Origin: Oligoflexia bacterium
Lineage (GTDB): Bacteria > Bdellovibrionota > UBA1018
Assembly: GCA_043732485.1 (NCBI GenBank)
Contig: JAYTHP010000102.1
Location: 1-13,979, forward strand
Length of the DNA: 13,979 nucleotides
Reading direction: 5' to 3'
Part shown: piece by piece, positions 1 to 13,979 of the stretch
Position numbering within the stretch: position 1 is the first letter of the stretch
Layout: every line of letters starts with the position of its first letter
Position numbers and translations under genes: made by a program
The notes under the pieces: generated by a model
The model's input: the letters and a program-made list of their open reading frames with translations, nothing else
Databases searched by the model: none
What the model was told of the DNA's origin: nothing

Positions 1-1
1 C

Positions 2-2593
2 CAGAAAATCGCGCTTTTTGCTGCCCTGATTCCCGCTCCGCTGCCAGGGGCTGCGGCTTCCACCCCCCCTGGTTCGTCCCTCGCACAAGCGTAGACTCAT
101 TTCTCCAAGCGCTCAGCCCTGCAAGAAGCAATCATCGCGTTAAGCCAGCTTGAGAATTATTTGCCCAGCCCGCAAGAAGCGTTCAGCGGGGCTCACGCTT
201 CACCACTGCTCCTCCATCGGGGTGCAAGCCAGCGGATTTTGCGTGAGTTCATGCAGATTATCCTGCAAAATCGCGACCCTGCCGTTGCAACCCCGATCTT
301 AGACCACCCCCTGATCCGGGCGCGTCCGGCCGTCATGCACACCCTGCTCACGCTCACCTTGAAAGACGCCGTTTTGAGCAAGGACAGCAACAACAACAGC
401 AGCCAGACTCTTGGAAACGGAGAGGTTTTGGCGGCACTTTTAGCAAAATACGTCCCGTCGGAAGACGACTCGATCTCTTTTAGCGCAGGTGATTTACTAC
501 GCCAGCCTCAGTTTTTAGAAGCGATCCTGCTTGCGGCCTTAAAACAGTGGATGAAAACCCCCGCAAGCCAGCCTGAACTAGCAGAGCAACACGCCGAGTT
601 TTGTGAGCGTTTTCTCAAGCTATTCGCCCTTCCCGCATCCCCGCCGCTTGCAAGCGCCGACCAGCCCAGTGACCTTGCCCCCTCGTTAAACCGCAGGGCG
701 CGGCTTTATCAAGCAGGACTGGCTTTTCTTGAACACCTGCTCGGGATCACTCCCTTGCCCCGGGGCAAGGGGTTTCTCATACGGGCCACCCTAGCCGTGC
801 AATCCTCAAGCCGGCGCGCGCAGCTGCGACGACTGAGACGTTACTGAGGCTTTGAGCATCAAGGTGGCGGTGTTGGTGGCGGCATGGGCGTCATCTCTCA
901 CCCGCAACCCAACCCGGCAGCCACAAACCCTCCCACTGGCTGGCACCCACCGTACTCAGCAGGGGCCGCAGCCGGAACCGTCGCTCCGCCTCAGTCGCTC
1001 TCACTCCTCCGATTAACCTTACCCCCCACGTCGGCCTTCAGTCCCCTGCTGCAAGGCATTCATGATACGGCGCACCTGTAGGTTCAGCAATAATCCCCAA
1101 GAATTCAAGGACTTGAAGATTTAGCTGCGGCTAGTGCGACGGCTGCAGCCGCTCCCCGCCCTGCGAGATCACCCTCGCTGAGCAAGTCGCTTCCTCTTGA
1201 GCAGCACCCTCATCAACCTGCCGCCCCAACCCTCGCGCGGGAGACAAGAGCCGCAGTCCAGCACCGCGCGCCATCGCACCCTACCACCTCGTATGGCCCT
1301 CACTCAGCAGAAAACAGCCCCCTGAGCGCACTCGATGCGCAGCAGCTAGAAACCCTACAGGAAGTCTTGCAACTCTCACCCAGCTCCCCGCCTCCGGCAG
1401 CGACTTTTTCGGGAGCCATTGCCAAGATGGACCTCAACGAGCTGGAAGCAGCGCTCGTGCCGAAGTATCAAGCGACCCACCGTGAGCTCAACGCTCTTGA
1501 AGCAGAGCTGCAATAGAGTCAGTTCAAGGGAAGAAGGACTCACGACTTGCTGTCGCCCCAAGCCAACGCCCGCAGCGTGCAGGCCTATCACCAAGCGCTA
1601 GCCCGCTACGATAGCTTGTTCCAGAGGGTAAAAAGAGCCGAGGCTTGGGGGATCACAGAGCTCGGCGAGCCAGCAAACAGCCCAAAAAAGGAGTAACAGC
1701 TGCGCGCCCTCTTGCTGCTCATGCAGCGATCAGAACTCTGGAAGTCGGCTGGTAACTTTTTTTTCAATCAAGCACAATCGTATGCCGAGATCAGTCAAAC
1801 TCTGCACTTTGAGACGCTGCAAACCGGGATCACTGACTCTTTAGCGGTCTTGCCACCTACGACGACGACGACAGCCCTCAAACTGCAGTTTCAAAGCAAA
1901 GCAATAGCGGCGCTAGAAAAAACACTAGAACTTTACCAAGTCATGGGGGATGGTTTTGATTACACCGTCTACCCGCCCATCAAGCGCAGCCTGCAACCCC
2001 CTGAAGTCATCCAAGAGATTCATATTGACGTCACCCAAGCCGAACTCAAGGCAACGAGACAGTGGCTTACCCAGCTGTTGGAAGCCCCAGAGACGGGGAA
2101 AGCCAACGATCTCAACCGCCTCCTGAGCCAGGAAAAAGCAAGCTACTCTCGGATCTGGCGCACTGAAGAAAGCAAGCGGCACTTTGTCCCTGCGTCTTCT
2201 CCAAGTAGCGACCCTCAAGACGGCGGTGAGAAACCCGCAGAGGACAACACCAACGCTAAGGCGCAGTCCCCCGCGCAAGACAAAGCCCGAGTCGAGCACT
2301 TCAAAGCGCTCGGCCAGAGGCTTTTACTTTCGACTGGGAAGCATAGCGAGCTTGCCTGGTGGCTTGGCCGCTGCCATTTGCAGATAGCCGAGACTTTGAG
2401 TCGCTCTCAGCCAGCGCCTGGAGGCCAAGACCAGCCGCCCCAGTGGGTGGAAGCGCAAGAGGTTTTGCGGCAAGCAAAGCAAGTTTTTCAAAAACTTGAA
2501 ATCTGCGAGCTTGCCAATGCTGACTTGCAAACCCGCTTAAGAAGAGCGCGCGTGGAATGGGAATCACTGGAGCAACGGCTCTTTCAAGACTAA
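2..2593 (+). pseudogene. 5'-truncated, nonsense-disrupted paralog (A') of the 1038-aa protein at 10355..13471; shared N-terminal domain, linker and helical C-terminal domain
   Basis: Track ORFs 161..847, 884..1081 and 1712..2593 lie in one frame and align colinearly with gene A from its PKIALFAALIP motif (10901) to its end (LEQRLFQD* vs LEQKLFQD*). In-frame stops occur at 92 (TAG), 845 (TGA), 1079 (TAG), 1091 (TAA), 1514 (TAG) and 1694 (TAA), where A has CAG, CGA, CAG, GAA, CAG and CAA. Confidence 0.85.
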
Positions 2594-2861
2594 GTTGCCC
2601 GGCCCGGAGAACGCCAGAAGCGCGGCGACTCCTTGTTACGCTCACGCAGCAACTCATCACACGCAGCAAGCCTCTGGGCTAGCACCGTTTTGCAATGACA
2701 AAAAAAGCACACACGAGAGTGCAAACTGAGCGCCTTTGCCAGCTCTCAAAGACCCCAAGCTCAAGATCGTCTCAAGACGACGACTCAAAGAGGTGAGACC
2801 ACCCGCGCAGGGTGGTGGGCGGCAAGCGTTTTGGCGCTCACGGTTGCGACGCCCATTATGA

Positions 2862-2913
2862 TTACATTTTAATGTAAAAAAAAATTGACTCACGGCTTCA
2901 TTGCTGCTAGACC
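2862..2913 (+). promoter_or_regulatory. Sigma70-like promoter with upstream palindrome (copy 1, upstream of gene B)
   Basis: TTACATT-TT-AATGTAA (2862-2877, perfect 7-bp arms), 7-bp A tract, TTGACT (2885-2890), 17-bp spacer ending in TGC, TAGACC (2908-2913). The same architecture recurs four times in the window. Confidence 0.75.
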
Positions 2914-2990
2914 CAGTCTTCTTTCATACATCGCCGTTGCTAAATTTCATTGTTTTTCCAGTAGTATTTTCAGCAGTCGGAGTCTTTCAT

Positions 2991-3019
2991 TAGCAGCATC
3001 AGTAGCAGCATCAGTAGCA
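2991..3019 (+). repeat. Short tandem repeat (TAGCAGCATCAG) x2.4 in the presumed 5' leader of gene B
   Basis: Read directly: tagcagcatcag tagcagcatcag tagca. Confidence 0.85.
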
Positions 3020-3107
3020 AATGTTACTCGCGTCTTTCGCTTTGTTCACTCAACCGGAAGAAGCGAAAGCCGTTCAAGCCAAGAGCCCAAAAAGGAACCG
3101 TAACCCC

Positions 3108-6100
3108 ATGACGAATTCGATGACCCGCTCGCTTCGCACACCCCTATCCCCTTTGTCCCGGGTCCTCAGCCTCAAGCTTGAAGCAGCAGCAGGAAACCGC
3201 TTGGCTCGGGTTCCTAACAGCCTCCCCGGCAAGCCGAAGCACGGGGTGAAGGACTGCCGCCGGTTCTTACTCGGGGAGAGAGTGGCAGCTGTCATCGTCA
3301 TTCTAGCTTATGGGTGGAGTCCTCCAGCGCACGCCGCACCCGGCGTGAGCGGAGAGATGAGTGGGGACATGCCTGATCGATGGACACTTGAGGAGACACG
3401 GAGGTTAAGGTCTTTTCAAGAAGTAATGACTGATTCCGTCCTGGCTGACTTAGAGCAGGTCAGAGAACTGAGTGCAGCCCATGAAAATGCCATTGCTTTC
3501 TCTGTGTTTGCAAGCTTCAGGGCACTAAAGGGTGCTCCCAGCGATCCTGAGACCAGAGCACGCTTGCTCAATCAACTGGTTGAGGAGCTAACTTTTAACG
3601 TGCCTGCAAGCCGTCACCCAGCAGAATTGCGGGTCGTACGCTTACCCAAAATTGCTATTTTTGCGACGCAATTTCCTTCAGCCGCGGCGCCTGACGTTTT
3701 GTTCGGGTTAACCCGTCTTGAGCGCGATCTCACGTCACCTTCTAGTCCCAACGCTCTCCTTGCCACGAGGATTTTAAGGCACTTTATGCAGGCATTCCTG
3801 CAGGCTCGCGGGCAAAATAGCGCAATCGCGGTCTTAGGAGTCTTCTGGCTTAGGGATTATCCTGCAGTGCTCAAGGTCTTCCTGAGTGTGGTTTTTAAGG
3901 ACTCGGTGATCAGGCGATGCGTTCGCGACGAAGACCCGCAATTAGCCTCTCTTTTAAGCGCACTCCCTGGATTCCACCCAGGCGCTTACCAGCCCCTAGC
4001 AGGCGACCTGCTGCGCGATCGCCACTTTTTGGGCTCGACCCTTGCCGAACCGCTGGAGAAGTGGTTTCACCCGGCCACGAGCGTGCAGGCGGCCGATCAT
4101 CATGCTGATTTTTGTCAAGTCTTTTTCTCGCAACTCGACAAACTTTTTCCAGCAGGCGAAGCCGCGGAGATCTATCACGCGGGCTGGAAGGTCGTGGATG
4201 CGCAAAGCCAAAGTGCGCCGCGCGCTTCAAGCCGGCTTTTGACACGAGAGGAGCACGCGCTTCAAAGCATCTTTGCTGGGAAGCGTTCCGTCTACCAAGA
4301 CTTTGGCGCAGACTATCCTCCAGTCGCCACCCCTCACCCCTTAGCACTGACTCCTGGCAGTCCCCCCTGGGCTCAAGGTTCCGCAGGCCAAGCACCCACC
4401 ACCACTCAGGAAGCGCCGCTTGATCGACAAGCCAGGCAGGCAGCAAGCACCAACCCGCCTTTGCCACCCGCTGCTGCTGCTGGAAGTCATCCGCTAGCGC
4501 TGCAACATCTTCCTTCTTTGACGTTACCGCCCACTTCTCCTACTCCTGCACCGTCTACTGCGGCTGCATCAGGGTCAGGTTCAGGCCCAGGGTCGCTTGC
4601 AGGACTCACTTTCGCGACCACTCAGCAAGCGCCGCACTCCACCTCCCTGCCGGCAGCAAGCGGCGGAGAGGCAAAGCGCTACCCCACGCGGAAGCGAAAA
4701 TCCCCTATTCCACCCAGCTCCCCGACTTCCACCGCTCAGGACCCGCTCGCCCTAGAGAGACTGAAAGAGCTGCTTGCCGAGGAAGAACGAGAGGAAGACG
4801 CGAAGTTAGAGGTCAAGGAAAGTGGTTTTTTGCAAAAGATGCAAATCCATGGGCAAAATGGGCTTTACGCGAAGGTGCCGCTTAAAAAGGGAGCCCTCAT
4901 TGGCTACTACCGCGGTATCATCTTCAACACCTTCGGTGACCGCGACGCAAGAATTGACGCGCTCTTGCAGAAACTGTCGCCCGGGGAACGCGCAGGGTGC
5001 GACGATAGTTACCTCCTCGACGTGATGGACCCCAAAAAACCAACTAAATTGGAGTATCTGATCGATGCCTTCTTTAAAGGCTTCGGGAGTAGTCGGCGCA
5101 GCCGCGCTGCGATAGCTAACCATGACTGTGATGACGATAACAGCGACTGGAGGGTTCAAAAAGTTGAGGAATCGCAAAACAATGACCTGCTTTTCCCGCG
5201 GGGCTACTCAGCTGGGGTTTACGCGACACGGGACATTGCAGCTGGCGAAGAAATCCTCGTCGATTACGGTCCAGGCTACCATGAGGCTTTAATTAAAAAA
5301 CATCCAGATTATAAAAAGTTCGTCGACGAGCGTGACAAAGCCAAGACTTTGCCGACCGATTTATCAACCCAGCTACCTTCTAATGATGATTTTATGCATC
5401 TCCTCGCAGCAGAAGCAGCTAAATTGCAGGAGAAAGACGCGAGCCTTGACGGCGCAGAGTCGGTGCCTCCCACCGCTCAAGCGCCCCGGCAGTATCAGCC
5501 AGCTCCCGCAGCACACTCAGCCCCGTCCGGTGGAGCGAGGGTTCAGTCTGCGGGCGCTGCCGAAAAGCCCCATCCTCGTTTGGCGCAGGGACAAACCGCG
5601 CCAGAGCGTTCTGCTCCGGGTGGCTTTCCAAGCGGCGCCGCTCCAGACGAGACACAGTTTGAGGCTAGTCAGGGAGCCCTCCCACCCACGGGTCAGCAGC
5701 CTTCAAGGAGAGAGGCTTTGAGAGAGCGTTTCTATCAACTCTTAACGGAAGCAGCCCCTGGAACAAGTGACGAGGGTCAAACAAACCTAACGAACTTAAC
5801 GAACCTAATGGCGCTCACCGAACTGCAGAAAGAATTTACTAAAGAGCTCAAAGCTGCCCAGAAATCTGCCACGGCGCAATCAGCAAAAGAGACTCTCATG
5901 CCAGACAAGGTCATTCGAGGCTATGATCGGTCGCTGGTCCACTGGCGACGGCTTGAACGCCTGGTGCAGCGCGCGGAGCAATGGAGTCAAAATCTGGGCA
6001 CTGAGACGTTGAGTGCAGAGGAGGAAATCCGCTTAGTGAAACTGTTCAGTGACATGAAGGCCACCAATATTTGGGAGAAAATTGGCAATACGCTTTATAA

Positions 6101-6896
6101 TCAGGCTAACGCTTATGAGGGGCTCGGTGAGCTGATTCCTTATACTGCACAGCTGACAGGGAGCAAGACTGCCACGCCCTTAAAACAGGACTTCCTTCAA
6201 AAGGCCGTTCGCGTTTTAGAGGAAGCGCTGGCGAATTACCATCTGATGTTGGGCGTTTTTGCGACTCCCCTTCATCCACTCATTAGTCGAAGCGGGGAAT
6301 CTCCTGCCACGATCAAAGAACATTTGCAATGCACCGAGCGCGAGCTCGCCGAGGGGAAAGCCCGACTACAAAAACTCCAGCATAATCTCGCAAAAGGGGT
6401 CGAGGAAGACCTGAACGACCTCGTCAAAAAAGCCGGCAAAGCTCTTCACTGGATCGTGCAACGCGCCCAACTCCGGGGGAGTGTCGCTTCTACGGGAGGT
6501 ACCAGGAACCAAGTAGAAGGGCAAGAAGTGGATCTCACTTCAGACGCCCCTCCCTTTTTCCTAGAAAGAACTCTCCTAGAACCTGCCGCAGCCCACCGCT
6601 TGTTGAATGAGCTAGTTGACATGCTTCTCACTTCTGCTAAGCACCGCGAGGAGCTACTTTGGTCGATAGGTCAGTGCTACTTAGTGCAAGCCACGCTTTT
6701 AAACCAGAAGCAGGACCTCTCCGCCCACCAGCAGCAGTTAGGGATAACCATGCTCCGTAAGGCTGATGTCTTTTTTAGCAGGCTGAAGAACAAAGAAGCG
6801 ATCAGGATCAGGTGGCAGGCGCTCTTAAAAAAAGTGGAGAAGATCACCGAGCCTTTGAGAGTTCGCTTCTCGCCACCCCAAGCCCCGGGCGCCTAG
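3108..6896 (+). CDS. Large putative secreted SET domain-containing protein (gene B): long signal peptide, family N-terminal domain, low-complexity linker with NLS-like motif, SET lysine methyltransferase domain, linker, helical TPR-like C-terminal domain
   Basis: Uninterrupted ORF, longest form 3021..6896 (1291 aa). ATG 3108 is preferred because of AAGGA about 10 nt upstream and MT.. starts in the paralogs; 3021 and 3120 are alternatives. SET motifs GLYAK, GALIGYYRG, LIDA, ANHDC and GVYATRDIAAGEEILVDYG are present. Signal-like segment VAAVIVILAYGWSPPAHA|A. Confidence 0.9.
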   Translation: MTNSMTRSLRTPLSPLSRVLSLKLEAAAGNRLARVPNSLPGKPKHGVKDCRRFLLGERVAAVIVILAYGWSPPAHAAPGVSGEMSGDMPDRWTLEETRRLRSFQEVMTDSVLADLEQVRELSAAHENAIAFSVFASFRALKGAPSDPETRARLLNQLVEELTFNVPASRHPAELRVVRLPKIAIFATQFPSAAAPDVLFGLTRLERDLTSPSSPNALLATRILRHFMQAFLQARGQNSAIAVLGVFWLRDYPAVLKVFLSVVFKDSVIRRCVRDEDPQLASLLSALPGFHPGAYQPLAGDLLRDRHFLGSTLAEPLEKWFHPATSVQAADHHADFCQVFFSQLDKLFPAGEAAEIYHAGWKVVDAQSQSAPRASSRLLTREEHALQSIFAGKRSVYQDFGADYPPVATPHPLALTPGSPPWAQGSAGQAPTTTQEAPLDRQARQAASTNPPLPPAAAAGSHPLALQHLPSLTLPPTSPTPAPSTAAASGSGSGPGSLAGLTFATTQQAPHSTSLPAASGGEAKRYPTRKRKSPIPPSSPTSTAQDPLALERLKELLAEEEREEDAKLEVKESGFLQKMQIHGQNGLYAKVPLKKGALIGYYRGIIFNTFGDRDARIDALLQKLSPGERAGCDDSYLLDVMDPKKPTKLEYLIDAFFKGFGSSRRSRAAIANHDCDDDNSDWRVQKVEESQNNDLLFPRGYSAGVYATRDIAAGEEILVDYGPGYHEALIKKHPDYKKFVDERDKAKTLPTDLSTQLPSNDDFMHLLAAEAAKLQEKDASLDGAESVPPTAQAPRQYQPAPAAHSAPSGGARVQSAGAAEKPHPRLAQGQTAPERSAPGGFPSGAAPDETQFEASQGALPPTGQQPSRREALRERFYQLLTEAAPGTSDEGQTNLTNLTNLMALTELQKEFTKELKAAQKSATAQSAKETLMPDKVIRGYDRSLVHWRRLERLVQRAEQWSQNLGTETLSAEEEIRLVKLFSDMKATNIWEKIGNTLYNQANAYEGLGELIPYTAQLTGSKTATPLKQDFLQKAVRVLEEALANYHLMLGVFATPLHPLISRSGESPATIKEHLQCTERELAEGKARLQKLQHNLAKGVEEDLNDLVKKAGKALHWIVQRAQLRGSVASTGGTRNQVEGQEVDLTSDAPPFFLERTLLEPAAAHRLLNELVDMLLTSAKHREELLWSIGQCYLVQATLLNQKQDLSAHQQQLGITMLRKADVFFSRLKNKEAIRIRWQALLKKVEKITEPLRVRFSPPQAPGA
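4806..5279 (+). other. SET domain within gene B (SAM-dependent protein-lysine methyltransferase fold)
   Basis: Canonical SET motifs occur in the right order: GLYA, GxxIxxYxG, IDA, NHDC (NHSC-like) and DIAAGEEILVDYG (GEELxxDY with the catalytic Tyr). There is no Cys-rich post-SET cluster. Confidence 0.9.
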
Positions 6897-7005
6897 CGTA
6901 TCGAGCTCCGCTCGGCGATCATCCGAAACCTTTCCAAGGCAGACGACGCTCCGCAGCTCTCAGAACCGCAGGCTCTCCTCTTGCCACTTATTTTGCAAAC
7001 AAAGA

Positions 7006-7057
7006 TTGCAATTTAATGTAAAAAATAGTTGACTCTGGCCTCTCAGCCTGCTAGCTC
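7006..7057 (+). promoter_or_regulatory. Sigma70-like promoter with upstream palindrome (copy 2, upstream of gene B')
   Basis: TTGCAATTTAATGTAA (7006-7021), 7 bp, TTGACT (7029-7034), 17-bp spacer ending in TGC, TAGCTC (7052-7057). Confidence 0.72.
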
Positions 7058-7282
7058 ATGGTAATTCAATTTATTGTCATTTAATTTAAGTTCTACGACT
7101 TGTCAGGAAAAAGGACTAAAAAAAATTAGGAGGCTTGGCGTTCTTGCAATCCCCCGCCAACTGAAGGGTGGTGGGTAGCCGCTAGGTCCCTGAAGCTCCA
7201 AAACTCAAAGAAAAAAGCAATGAAAGCCGCAAAGAAGGAATGATCCCGGAGCACCGCGCCTCAAAACCACTCCGAGATCTTA

Positions 7283-8647
7283 ATGCAAAGTAAGAGAAAG
7301 ACTGGAAAACTCATGACCATCCCGCTTCGCCCACCGCAAACCCTGCAACCCTTCAGCTTCAACTTGAGGCCACCCGCTTCCCGCTCAGGCCAGCGCTTAC
7401 AACACGGTTTGCAAGGAAATCAGTGCTGGGTGAGTGGCTTACTTTTACTCACGTTGTGCTGCGGTGGGGCGCAAGCCGCCCCTTTACCTGAGCAAGGAGG
7501 CGAGGCTGAGGCGCTTACGCTGCGGGAGTGCGGTTTGGGGGATTTTGCGGCAGTAAAAGAGGACCTTACTTTAAACCCAGCCACCCACGCGGCGCTGGTT
7601 TCTGCGCTGCTTGAGAGTTTTCGTGAGCTTCAGCACGATCCCCTGGAGCCAGCAACCAGAGCAAGAGTGCTCCAAGCCTTGGTCAGTGAGTTTCACTTCT
7701 TCACTTACACCGGCAACCCACAGCAGGAAGCTCGGGCCGCGCGAACACCAAAAATTGCTGTTTTTGCAGCAGAATATCCGCTCACCGAGACAGAGCGCGT
7801 TCTTTACGCCTTAAGCCGTCTTGAGCGCGATTTGGCTCCTCCGCAAGAGCCTGAAGGCGACGGCCCGCATCAAAACTCCAGCCGTCCCAACCGCCTCCTG
7901 GCTGAGACGATTTTAAGGCACTTCATGCAGGCCATCCTCCAGACTCGCGGTCCACAACGGGCACTTAAAATCCTGCAGCACTGCTGGCTGCAGGATCGCC
8001 CCGAAGTACTGAAACGCTGGCTGCAAGTCACCTTGCAAGACGCGGTGATCAGGAGCTGTGCAAACCAGGAGGACCCGCAGTTAGCCGATCTTTTTAGCAC
8101 GCTGCCGGCTTCTGACCCCGGTTTTGATGCAGCTGCCGCGGGAGATCTGCTGCGCCATCCCGACTTTTTAGCCGCAACCCTGAAGGAACGACTGCAGGCA
8201 TGGTTCTCGCCCACGACCGCCTCGCCTGAGGCCGAGCGCCACGCTGAGTTTTGTCGGGTCCTGATCCAACACCTCCCGCAGATCGTTCATGAAAGCGAGC
8301 AGGCAAGCAGCGTCTATCGACAGGGTCAGCATTTTGTGGAGCGCCAAGTGCAAAACTTCCTGCCTGACAGCAGGGCGCTTTCTATCGAGCAGCGAACGCT
8401 TCGGCGGGCTTTGCACATGAAAGTCGGGGCTTACCAATACTTTGGCTCTCAGACCTTCCCACAAGCTCGTTTAGAGTTACCTCCCCACCAAGCCCAGGGC
8501 GGCGGCGAGGTCCAGGATCAGGGAGAACACGCGGCAGCCAATCAGCTTGAGCACCACGTGCATTTTGACGCTCCGTCCTCCATGCAAGCCAGACAAGCAA
8601 GCACCAGCGACTTACCTGCGGCCTCAGCCAGTCTACCGCCTCCTTAG
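7283..8647 (+). CDS. N-terminal part of paralog B': signal peptide, family N-terminal domain and start of linker (ends at a probably premature TAG)
   Basis: 454-aa ORF (alternative start ATG 7313, MTIPLRPP) with LLLLTLCCGGAQA|A. Clearly homologous to gene B: PKIAVFA, LSRLERDL, ILRHFMQA, DAVIRSC..EDPQLA, AGDLLR, HAEFC, YQYFG. Confidence 0.8.
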   Translation: MQSKRKTGKLMTIPLRPPQTLQPFSFNLRPPASRSGQRLQHGLQGNQCWVSGLLLLTLCCGGAQAAPLPEQGGEAEALTLRECGLGDFAAVKEDLTLNPATHAALVSALLESFRELQHDPLEPATRARVLQALVSEFHFFTYTGNPQQEARAARTPKIAVFAAEYPLTETERVLYALSRLERDLAPPQEPEGDGPHQNSSRPNRLLAETILRHFMQAILQTRGPQRALKILQHCWLQDRPEVLKRWLQVTLQDAVIRSCANQEDPQLADLFSTLPASDPGFDAAAAGDLLRHPDFLAATLKERLQAWFSPTTASPEAERHAEFCRVLIQHLPQIVHESEQASSVYRQGQHFVERQVQNFLPDSRALSIEQRTLRRALHMKVGAYQYFGSQTFPQARLELPPHQAQGGGEVQDQGEHAAANQLEHHVHFDAPSSMQARQASTSDLPAASASLPPP

Positions 8648-8692
8648 CTCCCCTCTCCCCACGCCACTCCCAGGCTTGGCTTTAAAGTCCTC

Positions 8693-9526
8693 TTGAAGCC
8701 TCCCACAGCTAAGACACCTGCTAACGCCCACGGCAAGCGAAAAGTCGGAGCTCCCCTGGAGGACCGAGCCGCACGATCTCAACCCTCCCCTGGGTCCGGA
8801 CCGACTGGCAGCGCTAGGGAAGAGTTTTTGCAAGAAGAGCGCGAAGAAGACGAGAAGTTGCAGTTAGGCGAAAGCCAATTTTTGTTAAAGCTCAATCTTC
8901 ACAATAAGGTTGGGCTCTACGCCAAAGTGCCTATCCCCGCAGGAGCTCTCATTGATTTCTACCGCGGCAGAACATTTCCCGACATTCAAGCGCGAACCGA
9001 GGCGCTCAGAGGGCTACCCATTCCTCAGCGCAAACGCGGCTGCCTTGATCGTTACCTACTCTTTGTTGGAAACCCCGACCACCAGCCCGCCCCAGGCACT
9101 CTCCAGCAGCGCCTCTTCCTGATTGATGCTCTCCTAGTTGGCCGAGGGAGCAGCAGGCGTTCCATGGTTTCCTCCATCAACCATGACACCCAAGAGGACA
9201 ACAGCATGCGGCAGGTGCTGCGCGTGGAGGACTCGGAAAAAAACCGAGTGCTTTTTCCAGAAGGCTACTCGGTCGGGATTTACGCAAAACGAGCTATCAC
9301 CGCTGGAGAGGAGATTTTGATCAATTATGGCGATTTTTGCCATCAAAAGCTGCTCGAGCATTATAGAGTATATCGCGAGTTCGTGAACGACCGCGAACTG
9401 GAGCAGGCTGGCACAAGGCAGCAAACTGCCAGACGGCTGACTGCGAGCAATCGTCAGCGTCAGCAGCCGGCAAGACGCGCCCCGGGGGTCAAGCACGAGA
9501 CACTCAAGCAAAGGGCGGCCCAGTGA
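8693..9526 (+). CDS. SET domain-containing protein, C-terminal part of paralog B'
   Basis: Same frame as 7283..8647, separated only by TAG 8645-8647 and 15 sense codons. SET motifs GLYAKVPI, GALIDFYRG, LIDA, SINHDT and GIYAKRAITAGEEILINYG span about 8858..9331. No Shine-Dalgarno is visible before TTG 8693. Confidence 0.8.
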   Translation: MKPPTAKTPANAHGKRKVGAPLEDRAARSQPSPGSGPTGSAREEFLQEEREEDEKLQLGESQFLLKLNLHNKVGLYAKVPIPAGALIDFYRGRTFPDIQARTEALRGLPIPQRKRGCLDRYLLFVGNPDHQPAPGTLQQRLFLIDALLVGRGSSRRSMVSSINHDTQEDNSMRQVLRVEDSEKNRVLFPEGYSVGIYAKRAITAGEEILINYGDFCHQKLLEHYRVYREFVNDRELEQAGTRQQTARRLTASNRQRQQPARRAPGVKHETLKQRAAQ

Positions 9527-9735
9527 GAGGCGACGAGACGATGGGCGACCAGCCGCAAGAAGCAGCGGCAGCATTGCCTGAGCAGGATCAGCAGCAGCCG
9601 ATGACAATGACAATGACGGCGCTCCCTGATCAGACGCCTGTGAGCAACGATCCGTTGCTCAGTGGTCCGGTGCTGGGCAGTCAGCAGGCGCAAGAAGATG
9701 CCCTGATGGATTACATCCGCTCACAAATCGAATAG
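9523..9735 (+). CDS. Short acidic Gln/Pro/Ala-rich hypothetical ORF (70 aa), or the frameshifted tail of B'
   Basis: The GTG start overlaps the TGA of 8693..9526 (GTGA), with an alternative ATG at 9541. Composition resembles the family linkers. No recognisable domain. Confidence 0.35.
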   Translation: MRGDETMGDQPQEAAAALPEQDQQQPMTMTMTALPDQTPVSNDPLLSGPVLGSQQAQEDALMDYIRSQIE

Positions 9736-10018
9736 TCCCCAGTCTCTAAACGGCTGCGCGCGAGCCAGTGCCTCCCTCATCAGCCCCGCGCCAGAGGATC
9801 CTCAGCCTCCGCAACCCCGTGGCTGCTGCTCTTACCCCTATGCCGTTCCCTCTTCATGGCCCCACCTCTCACTCAATGACCCGCACGAAGGAAGTGAGAA
9901 GGAAAAGAGAAGGAAAAGCGAGAAAAACGCCCTCCATACAAACCAGCAGACCCCGGCAGCCAGCAACGCCCCTCGTCAGGGCGCCCGGGCATCAGTTTTG
10001 CAATTTTTCAAGCAACTC

Positions 10019-10071
10019 TTGCTTTTTAATGTAAAAAAAGATTGACCCCTGCCAGCAAACTCTGCTAGGAC
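10019..10071 (+). promoter_or_regulatory. Sigma70-like promoter with upstream degenerate palindrome (copy 3, upstream of gene A)
   Basis: TTGCTTTTTAATGTAA (10019-10034), 7 bp, TTGACC (10042-10047), 18-bp spacer ending in TGC, TAGGAC (10066-10071). Confidence 0.68.
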
Positions 10072-10354
10072 CTCAACTCCCATGACGTGGCATGCGGTAT
10101 TCCGAGGGGGTGAGGAGTCGAAGCTGAGCGGGCGTGCCAGAGCGAAAGGCAAGGCCCAGGACAGTTGCTCTGACAATTGCTCTTATGAAGTGAGATTACC
10201 CAGGGAAGAGGCTTTTTCCCTCCACGGAAGACTTTTTAGCTCCCGTTGAGCTCCGCCCGTTAGTCGGCTCGGCAGATCAGCGCATCCGCAGGCACCGCGA
10301 AGTCCTGCAGGCACCGTCAGTGAACCTACGCAAGAAAGTGTAGAAGGCTCCTTT

Positions 10355-13300
10355 ATGACTCATGATTACCCAACGACGCATCACACCAGAACTCTGCGCA
10401 ACAGGACTCCGTTTCGCAACCTCCTAGCACCCCACCCGCTGCTGCTGGTTCACCTGAGTCGGCGCTGGGTTGCAGATCTTTGCCAAGCAGGCTGGGTCAG
10501 CAAGGCACCTTGGGGAGGCGGCTCACTCCCGCCGCTTGCTCTCTTGTGTGCGTTGACGTGGCAACCGCTACCGCTTGCCCAGGCGTCTCCCACGGGAGAA
10601 GTCTCGGGAAGTCTCGGGGGAAATCTCGAAAGGACGAGCGTCGGTCCGCACGTTGAGGAGGCCCAAGGGTTATCCGCTCTCGTGGCTCAGGTCTTACGCG
10701 ATCCTGAGGCGTTGACCTCGCCTGCTGCACGCTTCGAGATCGTCGCAAGCATGCTCAGGAACTTAAAAGAGTTAGAACGCTACCATTACCTGCCGCAAGC
10801 CTCCCGCACCCGGCTGTTTGAGAAACTCACTGAGACCTTACCCTTTCGCGTGCGAGTCAACGACCCAGCAAATCCCGGGTCGACGCGCGTGGTGTTTGTG
10901 CCCAAAATCGCGCTTTTTGCCGCCCTGATTCCCGCTCCGCTGCAAGGGGCTGCGACTTCCACCCCCCCTGGTTCGTCGCTCGCCCACTCGCAGGCTGCTT
11001 TCTCCAAGCGCTCAGCCCTGCAAGAAGCCATCATCGCGTTAAGCCAGCTTGAAAATTATTTACCCAACAGCAGACAGCAAGCAGCGCTGAGCGGGGCTCA
11101 CGCTTCGCCACTGCTCCTCCACCGGGGTGCAAGCCAGCGGATTTTGTGTAAGTTCATGCAGATTATCCTGCAAAATCGAGACCCTAACGTGGCAACCCTG
11201 ATCCTAGACCACCCCCTGATCCGGGCGCGTCCGGCCGTGATGCACACCCTGCTCACGCTTGCCTTGAAAGACGCCGTGTTGAGAAAGGACAGCAGCAACG
11301 GTCTTGGCCAGACGCTTGGCCAGACGCCTGAAGCGCGCGGTGGGGTTTTGTTGGCGGCGCTTTTGGCAAAATACGCCCCGTCGGAAGACGACGCGGTCTC
11401 GTTTAGCGCAGGCGATTTACTCCGTCAGCCTCAGTTCTTAGAAGCGATCCTGCTTGCGGCCTTAAAAGAGTGGATGGAAACCCCCGCAAGCCAGCCTGAG
11501 CTTGCAGAGCAACAAGCCGAGTTTTGTGAGCGTTTTCTCGAGCTGTTCGCCCTCCCTGCCTCGCAGCCGCTTGCAAGCGCCGACCAGCCGAGCGACCTTG
11601 CCCCCCCGCTCAACCGCAGGGCGCGGCTTTATCAAGCAGGCCTGACGTTTCTCGAACACTTGCCAGAGCTTACTTCCCTTGCCCCGGGACAAGGGCTCTC
11701 GCACACGGCCTCAGACCGGCGCGCGCAGCTGCGACGACTGGCACGTTACCGAGGCCTTGAGCAGGAAGGGGGCGCTCGGGGTGTCGGTGTTGGCGACAGC
11801 CTCTCTCACCCGGAACCGCACTCAGCAGCAGGGGCCGGAACCGTCGCTCCGCCCCCGCTCCTCAGATTAACCTTACCCCCCGCGTCGGGCCTGAGTCGCC
11901 TCTTACAAGATCATCATCATGAGACGGCGCATCATGAGACGGCGCACCAGACGGCGCACCAGACGGCGCACCAGCAGACAGCTCAGCAAGAATCCCCAAG
12001 ATTTCAAGGGCTTGAAGATCTAGCTGCGGCCAGTGCGACGGCTACAGCCGCTCCCCGCCCTGCCAGATCCCCGTCGTTGCCGAGCTATAAGCATCCTGTC
12101 CCGTGGCGCGAGACAAGAGCTGAAGACCAGCACCGCGCGCCGTCGCACCCGCCTACTCGCTCCTCTCTCGCCCACGCAGCAGAAAGCCGCCCCTTGGAGG
12201 CACTCATTGCGCAGCAGCTAGCCAGTCTGCAGCGAGTCGGACAGCTCTCAGCCACCTCACCGCCTCCGGCAGCGACTTTTTCGGGAGCCATTGCCGAGAT
12301 GGACCTGGGCGAGCTGGAAGCAGCCCTCGTATCGGAGTATCAAGCGACCCACCGGGAACTGAACGCTCTTGAAGCGGAACTGGAGCAGGGGGAGATCAAG
12401 GGCCGAGCGGCGCACGACTTGCTGTCGCCGCAAGCCAACGCCCGCAGCGTGCAGGCCTATCAGCAAGCGCTAGCCCGCTACGATCGCTTGTTCCAGATGG
12501 TCAAAAGAGCCGAGGCTTGGGGGATTCAAAAGCTCGGCGAGCCGGCCACCAGCCAGCAACACGCGCAACAACTGCGCGCCTTCTTGCTGCTCATGCAGCA
12601 ATCGGAACTCTGGGAGTCGGCTGGAAACTTTTTGTTCAATCAAGCGCAATCTTACGTCGAGCTCAGTCAAACGATCCCCCTTGAAACGCTGCAAACCAAG
12701 GTGACGGGGACTTTACCGGCCTTGCCAACAACGACCGCCCTCAAACTGCAGTTTCAAAGAAAAGCGTTAACGGCGTTCGAACAAGCGCTCGAATTTTACC
12801 AAGCCATGAAAGATGATTTTGATTTCACCGTCTTCCCCCCGATCAAGCGCAGCCTCAGGCCGCTGAGCGAAATTCAAGAGCTTCATCTTGACGTCACCCA
12901 AACCGCCATCCAGGCAACGAGACGCAGGCTGACCCAGCTGTTGACAAACCCAGCGAAGGTGCAAGCCGACGATCTCAGCCGCCTCTTGAGCCAGGCAAAA
13001 GCAAGCTTCTCTCGGATCTGGCGCTCGGGAGCAAGCAAACGACGCCTTGTCCCGGCGTCTTCTGCTAGGAGCAACCCGCAAGACGCTCAAGCTGACGGCG
13101 ACGAGAAAACCGCAGAGGGCAACACCAACGCTGAAGCGCAGTCCCCCGCGCAAGACGAAGCCCGCAATCAAGCCCGAATCGAGCAATTCCAAGCGCTCAG
13201 CCAGACGCTGTTACTTGCGGCAAGCCAAGAGAGCGAGATTGCCTGGTGGCTCGCCCGCTGCCATTTGCAGATCGCCGATATTTTGAGTCGCTCTCAGCCA

Positions 13301-13471
13301 GCGCCTGGATGTCAAGACCAAGGGGCAGAAGCGCAAGCATTTTTGCGGCAAGCAAAGCAAGGTTTTCAGCAACTGGAAGTCCGCGAGCCTGACAACGCTG
13401 ACTTGCAAGCCCGTTTAAAAAGAGCGCGCGTGGAATGGGAATCCCTCGAGCAAAAGCTCTTTCAGGACTAA
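10355..13471 (+). CDS. Large putative secreted hypothetical protein (gene A, 1038 aa): long signal peptide, family N-terminal domain, low-complexity linker, helical TPR-like C-terminal domain; no SET domain
   Basis: Uninterrupted ORF with GAAGG 7 nt before the ATG and signal-like LALLCALTWQPLPLAQA|S. It shares N-terminal motifs (PKIALFA, FMQ, AGDLLR, QAEFC) and C-terminal motifs (VKRAEAW, WESAGNFLFNQAQSY, EIAWWLARCHL) with gene B. Confidence 0.9.
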   Translation: MTHDYPTTHHTRTLRNRTPFRNLLAPHPLLLVHLSRRWVADLCQAGWVSKAPWGGGSLPPLALLCALTWQPLPLAQASPTGEVSGSLGGNLERTSVGPHVEEAQGLSALVAQVLRDPEALTSPAARFEIVASMLRNLKELERYHYLPQASRTRLFEKLTETLPFRVRVNDPANPGSTRVVFVPKIALFAALIPAPLQGAATSTPPGSSLAHSQAAFSKRSALQEAIIALSQLENYLPNSRQQAALSGAHASPLLLHRGASQRILCKFMQIILQNRDPNVATLILDHPLIRARPAVMHTLLTLALKDAVLRKDSSNGLGQTLGQTPEARGGVLLAALLAKYAPSEDDAVSFSAGDLLRQPQFLEAILLAALKEWMETPASQPELAEQQAEFCERFLELFALPASQPLASADQPSDLAPPLNRRARLYQAGLTFLEHLPELTSLAPGQGLSHTASDRRAQLRRLARYRGLEQEGGARGVGVGDSLSHPEPHSAAGAGTVAPPPLLRLTLPPASGLSRLLQDHHHETAHHETAHQTAHQTAHQQTAQQESPRFQGLEDLAAASATATAAPRPARSPSLPSYKHPVPWRETRAEDQHRAPSHPPTRSSLAHAAESRPLEALIAQQLASLQRVGQLSATSPPPAATFSGAIAEMDLGELEAALVSEYQATHRELNALEAELEQGEIKGRAAHDLLSPQANARSVQAYQQALARYDRLFQMVKRAEAWGIQKLGEPATSQQHAQQLRAFLLLMQQSELWESAGNFLFNQAQSYVELSQTIPLETLQTKVTGTLPALPTTTALKLQFQRKALTAFEQALEFYQAMKDDFDFTVFPPIKRSLRPLSEIQELHLDVTQTAIQATRRRLTQLLTNPAKVQADDLSRLLSQAKASFSRIWRSGASKRRLVPASSARSNPQDAQADGDEKTAEGNTNAEAQSPAQDEARNQARIEQFQALSQTLLLAASQESEIAWWLARCHLQIADILSRSQPAPGCQDQGAEAQAFLRQAKQGFQQLEVREPDNADLQARLKRARVEWESLEQKLFQD
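11912..11974 (+). repeat. In-frame coding minisatellite (HHETA)x2-(HQTA)x2 in the linker of gene A
   Basis: catcatgagacggcg x2 (11915-11944) followed by caccagacggcg x2 (11945-11968). Paralog A' has a single unit (catgatacggcgcac). Confidence 0.9.
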
Positions 13472-13697
13472 GTTGCCCCAAGCCAGAGACCGGCGCACGG
13501 GGGAAGCAAGGGAACTCCTGGTCAAGCTCCGTCTTGTTAGGACAAAACTACGCGCAGTTGGCCCAACTCTCCAAAGCCCTAGGCTCAGGGTCGCTTCCCC
13601 ACGACGACTCGACAACGACTCAAGGTGGTGAGGGCAACCGAGATCCAGGGTTGCTCTGCAAGCGTTAGGACGCTCTCGGTTGTGATACCCATCAGGA

Positions 13698-13749
13698 TTA
13701 CACTTTAATGTAAAAAAAAATTGACTCACGGTTTCATTACTGCTAAATC
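13698..13749 (+). promoter_or_regulatory. Sigma70-like promoter with upstream palindrome (copy 4, for a gene starting at or beyond the window end)
   Basis: TTACACTTTAATGTAA (13698-13713), 7-bp A tract, TTGACT (13721-13726), 17-bp spacer ending in TGC, TAAATC (13744-13749). Nearly identical to copy 1. Confidence 0.75.
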
Positions 13750-13908
13750 CAAACCTCTTTTAAGCATTGCCCACGCATTGCCCCTGCACCGCCTCTCGTG
13801 TTTTTCAGTGAGTGATTGAGTGAGTAATTGTTCAGGAGTATTTTCGTCAGCATTAGCCCGTCATTCTGAGTCGCAGCATGATCAGTAGCTCCATCAGTAG
13901 TACCCTAT

Positions 13909-13979
13909 TCAGTATCAGTATCAGTATCAGTATCAGTATCAGTATCAGTATCAGTATCAGTATCAGTATCAGTATCAGT
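13909..13979 (+). repeat. Perfect hexanucleotide microsatellite (TCAGTA)n, at least 11.8 units, running off the window end
   Basis: Read directly; preceded by degenerate atcagtag units at 13881 and 13893. Confidence 0.97.

Follow-up and report, generated by a model that had tools for sequence, protein, structure and literature searches.

The 13,979-nt stretch of DNA analysed here (the window), which is the entire contig JAYTHP010000102.1 (C102) of an Oligoflexia bacterium assembly of 2.58 Mb and 250 contigs (GCA_043732485.1, hereafter G000; completeness 89%, contamination 0.24%), carries four genes of a six-gene array whose proteins share an N-terminal domain (NTD), joined to a SET domain, a C-terminal domain (CTD) or both. 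We read these genes, with a probability of about 0.5, as a lineage-specific effector family that a Bdellovibrionota-like bacterium associated with eukaryotes directs at its host. The proteins would be exported by the Sec pathway and a type II secretion system (T2SS) and would use SET on chromatin or another host protein. This reading draws on the SET motifs, the ratios of nonsynonymous to synonymous substitution (dN/dS), the leaders of the proteins, the T2SS of G000 and its secretome of LRR and RBR-type proteins, the clade to which G000 belongs, the MYND-SET proteins of a relative (G021) and an algal precedent. As far as sequence comparison can tell, the new elements are two orphan domains, a SET domain behind a predicted Sec-type signal, and a probably eukaryote-associated Bdellovibrionota-like clade.

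Organization and divergence of the array

Three architectures make up the family, namely NTD and CTD (A-type), NTD, SET and CTD (B-type), and NTD and SET (B'-type), and the window holds A1 (broken), B1 (intact), B'1 (broken) and A2 (intact), all on the forward strand. The sequence-only reading had described four genes with these architectures, two of them decaying, and all of this is in the sequence; it overlooked, however, that the array extends across five contigs and arose by tandem duplication of a unit of three genes. Searched by tblastn, blastn and profiles, the genome has the family on just four contigs besides C102: A1 begins on C216; B2 begins on C103 and ends on C127, where B'2 also starts; and B'2 is completed on C185. 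Aligned to the sister unit, three of the contig junctions abut within 2–3 bases; at the fourth, the last 92 bases of the window overlap C103 at 100% through a (TCAGTA)n repeat. The gene order A1-B1-B'1-A2-B2-B'2 can therefore be proposed, most simply representing one tandem duplication of a unit A-B-B'. Thus three ancient paralogs were duplicated once as a unit, and A1 and B'1 decayed afterwards. The two units retain 74–82% nucleotide identity over long matches (75.9% over 3048 columns for A1 versus A2), and B'2, like the surviving copy of every type, is open over the assembled sequence, one A and one B' having decayed.

Between the units, dN/dS is 0.24–0.50 in pieces of the NTD, SET and CTD and 0.41–0.58 in the leaders and most linkers, and it is 0.86 over the 64 codons ahead of the B'1 stop. 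Judged by these rates, the NTD, SET and CTD are under purifying selection, and within B the NTD is conserved best (81% identity, dN/dS 0.32). The three types are far more divergent. The NTD, which is indeed common to all genes, as had been claimed, shows 31–48% identity between types over 250–306 aligned residues in the pairs with long overlaps, and its profile matches the window with E-values of 1e-158 to 1e-91. A and B share 31–35% identity in the NTD and 26–28% in the CTD, while B and B' share 41–48% in the NTD (long-overlap pairs) and 42–48% in SET. The earlier assignment of the remaining modules is likewise borne out, the CTD profile giving four matches, in A and B and none in B', and the insert common to B and B' being a SET domain (PF00856). 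The proposal that SET had been inserted into the linker between NTD and CTD is compatible with the architecture; the linkers of A and B, however, cannot be aligned (z of −0.6 and −1.1 versus shuffles). A single gain or loss of SET, a single loss of the CTD and ordinary duplications would explain all the architectures, and the paired genes of the two units are identical in architecture, with no sign of C-terminal replacement by recombination.

These observations bear on the broader claim of the sequence-only reading, which had pictured a polymorphic system with swappable cargo behind an NTD acting as a secretion module. There are just two cargo modules, SET and the NTD have diverged alike, and no further NTD paralogs with other cargo were found in the 89%-complete genome or in any database searched, an outcome that the sequence-only reading had itself named as refuting it. 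The array spacers (416–619 nt) contain neither cassettes nor immunity genes, their longest ATG-started open reading frame measuring 64 aa. Polymorphic toxin systems are defined by standalone cassettes and immunity genes (PMC3482391), and the array is not a system of that kind. A role of the NTD in secretion is unsupported as well, because a signal peptide and a type II cluster already explain export; moreover, the other eukaryote-like secreted proteins of G000 (LRR, RBR) lack the NTD.

Each gene does have its own copy of a promoter-like element, as the earlier reading had noted for the genes whose 5′ ends it saw, missing only a fourth copy in the window that heads B2. The predicted elements lie on the forward strand at 2868..2913 (B1), 7012..7057 (B'1), 10025..10071 (A2) and 13704..13749 (B2, whose coding part is on C103 and C127), that of B1 comprising TTTAATGT plus an A-tract, TTGAC, 16 nt and GCTA. 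The core TTTAATGTAAA occurs exactly six times in the genome, once ahead of each array gene, and not at all in a 1.3-Mb Markov-1 sample; allowing two mismatches adds no genome occurrences. Every copy is followed by TTGAC, 16–17 nt and GCTA, an arrangement that we take to resemble a sigma-70 promoter with an A-rich upstream element. The conservation of the element among paralogs that are just 31–48% identical supports their shared regulation, also proposed before. It lends no support to a wider effector regulon.

The products also look exported, in line with the earlier view: by a hydropathy heuristic and visual inspection, each of the six leaders combines a long basic N-region with a hydrophobic stretch and an A-[HQ]-A end. 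On inspection, no conserved lipobox cysteine is visible in the six. In B1, the signal-peptide-like stretch lies at 3282..3335 (+) and ends A-H-A.

Regarding the other genes in the window, A1 (1..2593, +) is the 3′ portion of a broken NTD and CTD gene, with in-frame stops at 92, 845, 1079, 1091, 1514 and 1694 and a 5′ portion on C216 that is interrupted as well. B'1 (7283..9735, +; likely start 7313) is a broken NTD and SET gene, in which the NTD (7496-8440) is followed by a stop at 8645-8647, SET (8909-9331) and the end of the frame at 9526, and a tail (9523-9735) runs on in a different frame. The stops at 845, 1079, 1091, 1694 and 8645 lie in sequence identical to that of independently assembled contigs of the runs X1 and X2, which may be the source sample. 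The B' tail terminates in a short acidic amphipathic motif of the ALMDYI type (window 9690-9735 and L003:1375-1560, with two copies in B'2), which may serve as a short linear motif for binding. The intact A2 (10355..13471, +) encodes 1038 aa, comprising a leader, NTD (10670-11764), linker and CTD (12257-13468); a 12-nt repeat in its linker (HETA/HQTA, 11917-11980) is one unit shorter, in frame, in X1 and X2. A (TCAGTA)11 repeat (13909..13974, +) occupies the B2 leader between the promoter-like element and the coding region, where a change in length could conceivably tune B2 expression, and its B1 counterpart is only a short degenerate version near 2987-3021. The array is flanked upstream by a gene for a DUF4832 protein (L004:45-1658) and downstream by a convergent gene of 261 aa (L003:123-908) that has no assigned family.

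The SET domain and the two orphan domains

The best view of the full architecture is given by B1 (3108..6896, +), an intact gene of 1262 aa in a frame open from 3021, which encodes a leader, NTD, linker, SET, linker and CTD. Its SET domain (4761..5345, +; Pfam core 4860-5270; motifs GLY, YRG, NH and EE.L..YG) and that of B'1 score above the PF00856 cut-off (46.3 and 33.9 bits versus 22.4). All four SET copies of the genome carry the motifs NHD and EEIL[VI][DN]YG, which match the two conserved SET motifs named in PMC3980110, the SAM-binding (S-adenosylmethionine-binding) NH and the ELxFDY-like motif with the catalytic Tyr. The sole NCBIfam match, to LegAS4, is weak (E 2.7e-4), and with 19.8 bits the domain falls below the cut-off of 550 for the LegAS4/RomA equivalog NF043024; a profile search returned only the SET domain itself among proteins of 107–363 aa. 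The best PDB sequence matches, to SETD8/KMT5A (6boz, 1zkk), are weak too (E 3e-4) and align ~30 residues over the C-terminal motif; they are evidence neither of origin nor of H4K20 specificity. Ahead of SET, B1 has an RKRK basic cluster (4689..4700, +) resembling a nuclear localization signal (NLS), and B2 has an RKRK too; as such clusters occur in 14 of the 151 long G000 proteins, RKRK is weak evidence for an NLS.

Both flanking domains are orphans, as the sequence-only reading had also concluded: neither the NTD (~300–370 aa, common to all six genes; B1 3408..4310, +, ~300 aa) nor the CTD (~390 aa; B1 5748..6878, +) matched a named family in Pfam, NCBIfam or profile searches, and neither occurs in any of the 126 further class genomes that were searched. 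A full HMMER search of 1.84 billion representative proteins with the NTD gave four matches, three of them from the window. A turtle AHNAK2 match to the NTD profile, whose E-value of 1e-6 is summed over 10 repeats, was dismissed as spurious. Word-index searches returned only self matches for the NTD (top 8000 candidates, proteins of 710–2260 aa) and for the CTD (long proteins only, hence weak evidence), pattern scans for the NTD in genome and metagenome contigs, sensitive to close relatives only, found none, and an atlas search gave no usable NTD match.

Structure prediction yields a helical NTD with one beta-hairpin (mean pLDDT 78.7, pTM 0.76) and an all-helical CTD with at most TPR-like hairpins (pLDDT 68.7). 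Neither model had a Foldseek match at E <= 0.001, TM-scores being <=0.30 and Z within noise; for the CTD, the leads from the atlas were TPR clusters for the most part, with scores up to 0.89. The NTD is a confidently modelled 300-residue domain without a fold match, in which 58 of ~300 columns are invariant across the A, B and B' types. It may have a role in anchoring or targeting after export.

The source organism and its eukaryote-like secretome

RpoB groups G000 with Bdellovibrionota and Myxococcota rows (SH-aLRT 97), and in view of PMC13200544 it may belong to the GTDB class UBA1018. The gspC-L homologs of a type II secretion cluster lie at C210:9307-23660 (L152), with GspD and GspE scoring above NCBIfam cut-offs; the genome also encodes Tad, pilus and flagellar genes, and its single FHIPEP gene is read as probably flagellar. 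Neither a type VI secretion sheath nor VirB4 was detected, at a genome completeness of 89%, and no search was aimed at Dot/Icm.

Alongside these systems, G000 has secreted-looking families of eukaryotic character. One is a 37-member LRR cluster, with LRR_6 proteins bearing signal-like leaders at C40:9370-17953 (L020) and ~30 other places, some of which have an F-box-like stretch before the repeats, F-box-like matches being few. Another comprises six RBR/IBR proteins (C176:6380-15282, L018; C219:2314-6374, L019; C153:6948-10121, L153), all with signal-like leaders and C-terminal RING-IBR-RING-like zinc fingers, five being RBR-like and one a further IBR protein; all six have IBR Pfam matches, two of them above the cut-off, and one has ankyrin repeats. 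By their domains they look like bacterial RBR E3 ligases, and our literature search found no paper on bacterial RBR-type proteins like these. A hydrophobic N-terminal stretch is present in 21 of the 24 long LRR/RBR proteins versus 168 of 402 in the background (approximate P 4e-6).

These families are not randomly distributed among relatives. LRR_6 occurs in three of 60 relatives (G021, G024 and G028) and IBR in three of 60 (G005 with six matches, G009, and weakly G021), with neither in the 14 controls. G000, G021, G024, G005, G009 and G028 all fall within one 7-row RpoB clade (SH-aLRT 97; 99 for G000, G021 and G024; loci L017, L122-L124, L132 and L149) in a quick single-gene tree that includes 29 of the 60 relatives and leaves three further LRR-positive genomes of the class unplaced. 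On this tree, LRR/IBR presence takes two changes compared to a shuffled mean of 5.6, none of 500 shuffles being as low. LRR genes are hugely expanded in G024 (1.9 Mb). The close relative G021 (2.0 Mb) independently has tandem genes for proteins with a signal-like leader, zf-MYND and SET, that is, SMYD-like parts (L106:1270-2454, L108:925-3413 and L110:955-3284), in which ND replaces NH and the SET domain is only distantly like that of the array.

Taken together, the LRR and RBR/IBR proteins and the clade suggest that the source organism is probably eukaryote-associated, living on or in eukaryotic cells, which is in line with the host association that the sequence-only reading had assumed, and that the clade of these six genomes probably represents undescribed eukaryote-associated Bdellovibrionota. 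No paper on eukaryote-associated Bdellovibrionota with such secreted proteins was found in a search that lay mostly outside subscription journals.

Modes of action and comparison with known systems

In the effector reading that we favour, the six genes would be transcribed from copies of one conserved promoter, and their proteins would therefore be made together. The signal peptide would lead them into Sec and the type II system would take them outside, as for the LRR and RBR-type proteins of G000. SET enzymes need SAM, which is a cytoplasmic cofactor, and SET would for this reason be active within a host cell, after invasion by the bacterium or its attachment. There, B could reach the nucleus via its basic cluster, and B and B' would methylate lysines of chromatin or of another host protein. 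The retained helical NTD could serve for binding or as a scaffold, directing A, B and B' to a common host target, with the CTD providing a second binding surface by analogy with the RomA ankyrin repeats, and A, which has no enzyme, would act through binding alone. The family is known from a single genome. We take the Oligoflexales to belong to the same phylum as the source organism. An FD111-like Oligoflexales bacterium replicates within algal cells, so that a relative can reach a site where Sec and T2SS export would suffice (PMC12865303).

A bolder version, which we consider doubtful, would have the Bdellovibrionota clade switch from bacterial to eukaryotic hosts, live free in host cytoplasm or nucleus, and deliver chromatin and ubiquitin effectors by Sec and T2SS; the NTD would then be a new-fold nucleus- or chromatin-docking domain assembling the co-expressed A, B and B' into one bacterial chromatin-modifying complex of enzyme-plus-reader subunits and an enzyme-less scaffold. 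It is also unlikely, in our judgement, that the NTD acts as a constant prodomain for delivery, anchoring or uptake, like those of Amoebophilus APD1/APD2 and Neisseria MafB-N, with SET and the CTD as exchangeable cargo. Its place after the signal peptide, its restriction to one lineage, its being the sole part common to six genes and its high conservation in B fit the pattern in section 37 of PMC3482391; however, the paucity of cargo modules, the empty spacers, the lack of a consistent lipobox, the parallel divergence of NTD and SET, and the LRR and RBR proteins that manage without an NTD all argue against it.

Targets other than eukaryotic ones must also be considered, with the proteins acting as effectors or surface proteins on bacterial prey or on the cell's own envelope and a bacterial protein as the substrate of SET. 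Bdellovibrionota are known for preying on bacteria, with Tad/Kil in most genomes of the phylum (PMC13200544), and G000 has the Tad, pilus and flagellar genes mentioned above. We nevertheless regard this as quite unlikely, given the absence of the family from every other genome of the class searched and the expanded LRR, IBR/RBR and, in part, F-box-like secreted families of G000. Such families make sense only against a eukaryotic ubiquitin system. The same richness in ubiquitin-related mimics could suggest that the NTD is itself an enzyme, for instance a new-fold cysteine-dependent one of the ubiquitin pathway, of which A, B and B' would be variants with accessory domains, and C236, D165, D200, R203, E105, K81 and W219 (model numbering) are among its 58 invariant columns. 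With three independent lineages, however, that number of columns is unselective, no enzyme fold matches, and the His near the Cys is Gln in the intact A2, which makes an enzymatic NTD improbable. Finally, the fragmentation of the array over five contigs and the breakage of two of its six genes could point to an artefact of assembly or binning, or to a relic in neutral decay. This reading is largely refuted already and scarcely credible in view of the abutting and overlapping contig ends, a third-codon-position GC content of 0.56–0.64 inside the 5–95% range of the genome, and dN/dS below 1; in addition, the runs of a second study, a glacier metagenome, contain short pieces of the array, mostly at least 99% identical (18 of 19 in X3 and 15 of 19 in X4).

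If the effector reading is correct, a SET effector with a Sec-type signal, built on two orphan domains and found in a lineage derived from predators, would add a new delivery route and a new scaffold to the SET nucleomodulins. The wider context may matter even more: the secreted LRR, RBR-type and MYND-SET proteins of the clade suggest that these bacteria turned to eukaryotic hosts, a shift so far undescribed.

Among known systems, the array recalls classical polymorphic toxins in its tandem paralogs with a common 5′ part (PMC3482391), but every array gene has a full-length architecture and its own promoter, and cassettes and toxin–immunity pairs are lacking. Closer in design are APD1/APD2 of Amoebophilus asiaticus and MafB-N of Neisseria, in which a signal peptide precedes a lineage-restricted constant N-terminal domain and differing C-terminal parts (PMC3482391), and, like them, the array proteins are probably deployed in parallel. 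The APD1/APD2 effectors combine a lipobox with many different cargoes (section 37 of the same article), whereas the array has two C-terminal modules at one locus and neither a consistent lipobox nor a MafA-like partner or immunity genes. Pfam and NCBIfam revealed no homology of the NTD to APD or MafB-N, APD models not being among those searched. The NTD and CTD models are all-helical like TPR and HEAT/ARM scaffolds, but differ from them in having no significant fold match.

The remaining comparison is with the SET nucleomodulins, which include RomA/LegAS4 of Legionella, NUE of Chlamydia, BtSET of Burkholderia and BaSET of Bacillus (PMC3980110, PMC10653858), and for which export by type III or IV secretion or by an unknown route is described (PMC3980110). 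With these, the array shares a SET domain with intact motifs and helical accessory domains, and its signal-like leaders and NLS-like cluster may extend the likeness to secretion and nuclear entry. It differs in its apparent Sec-type rather than type III or IV export signal, and in that SET resides in a protein of 830–1260 aa with orphan domains, accompanied by SET-less paralogs, in a Bdellovibrionota-like organism. The ankyrin repeats of RomA are needed for H3 binding (PMC10653858), whereas no ankyrin repeats were detected in the array proteins. By this analogy, the array family would work most like the SET nucleomodulins, while standing outside the RomA family.

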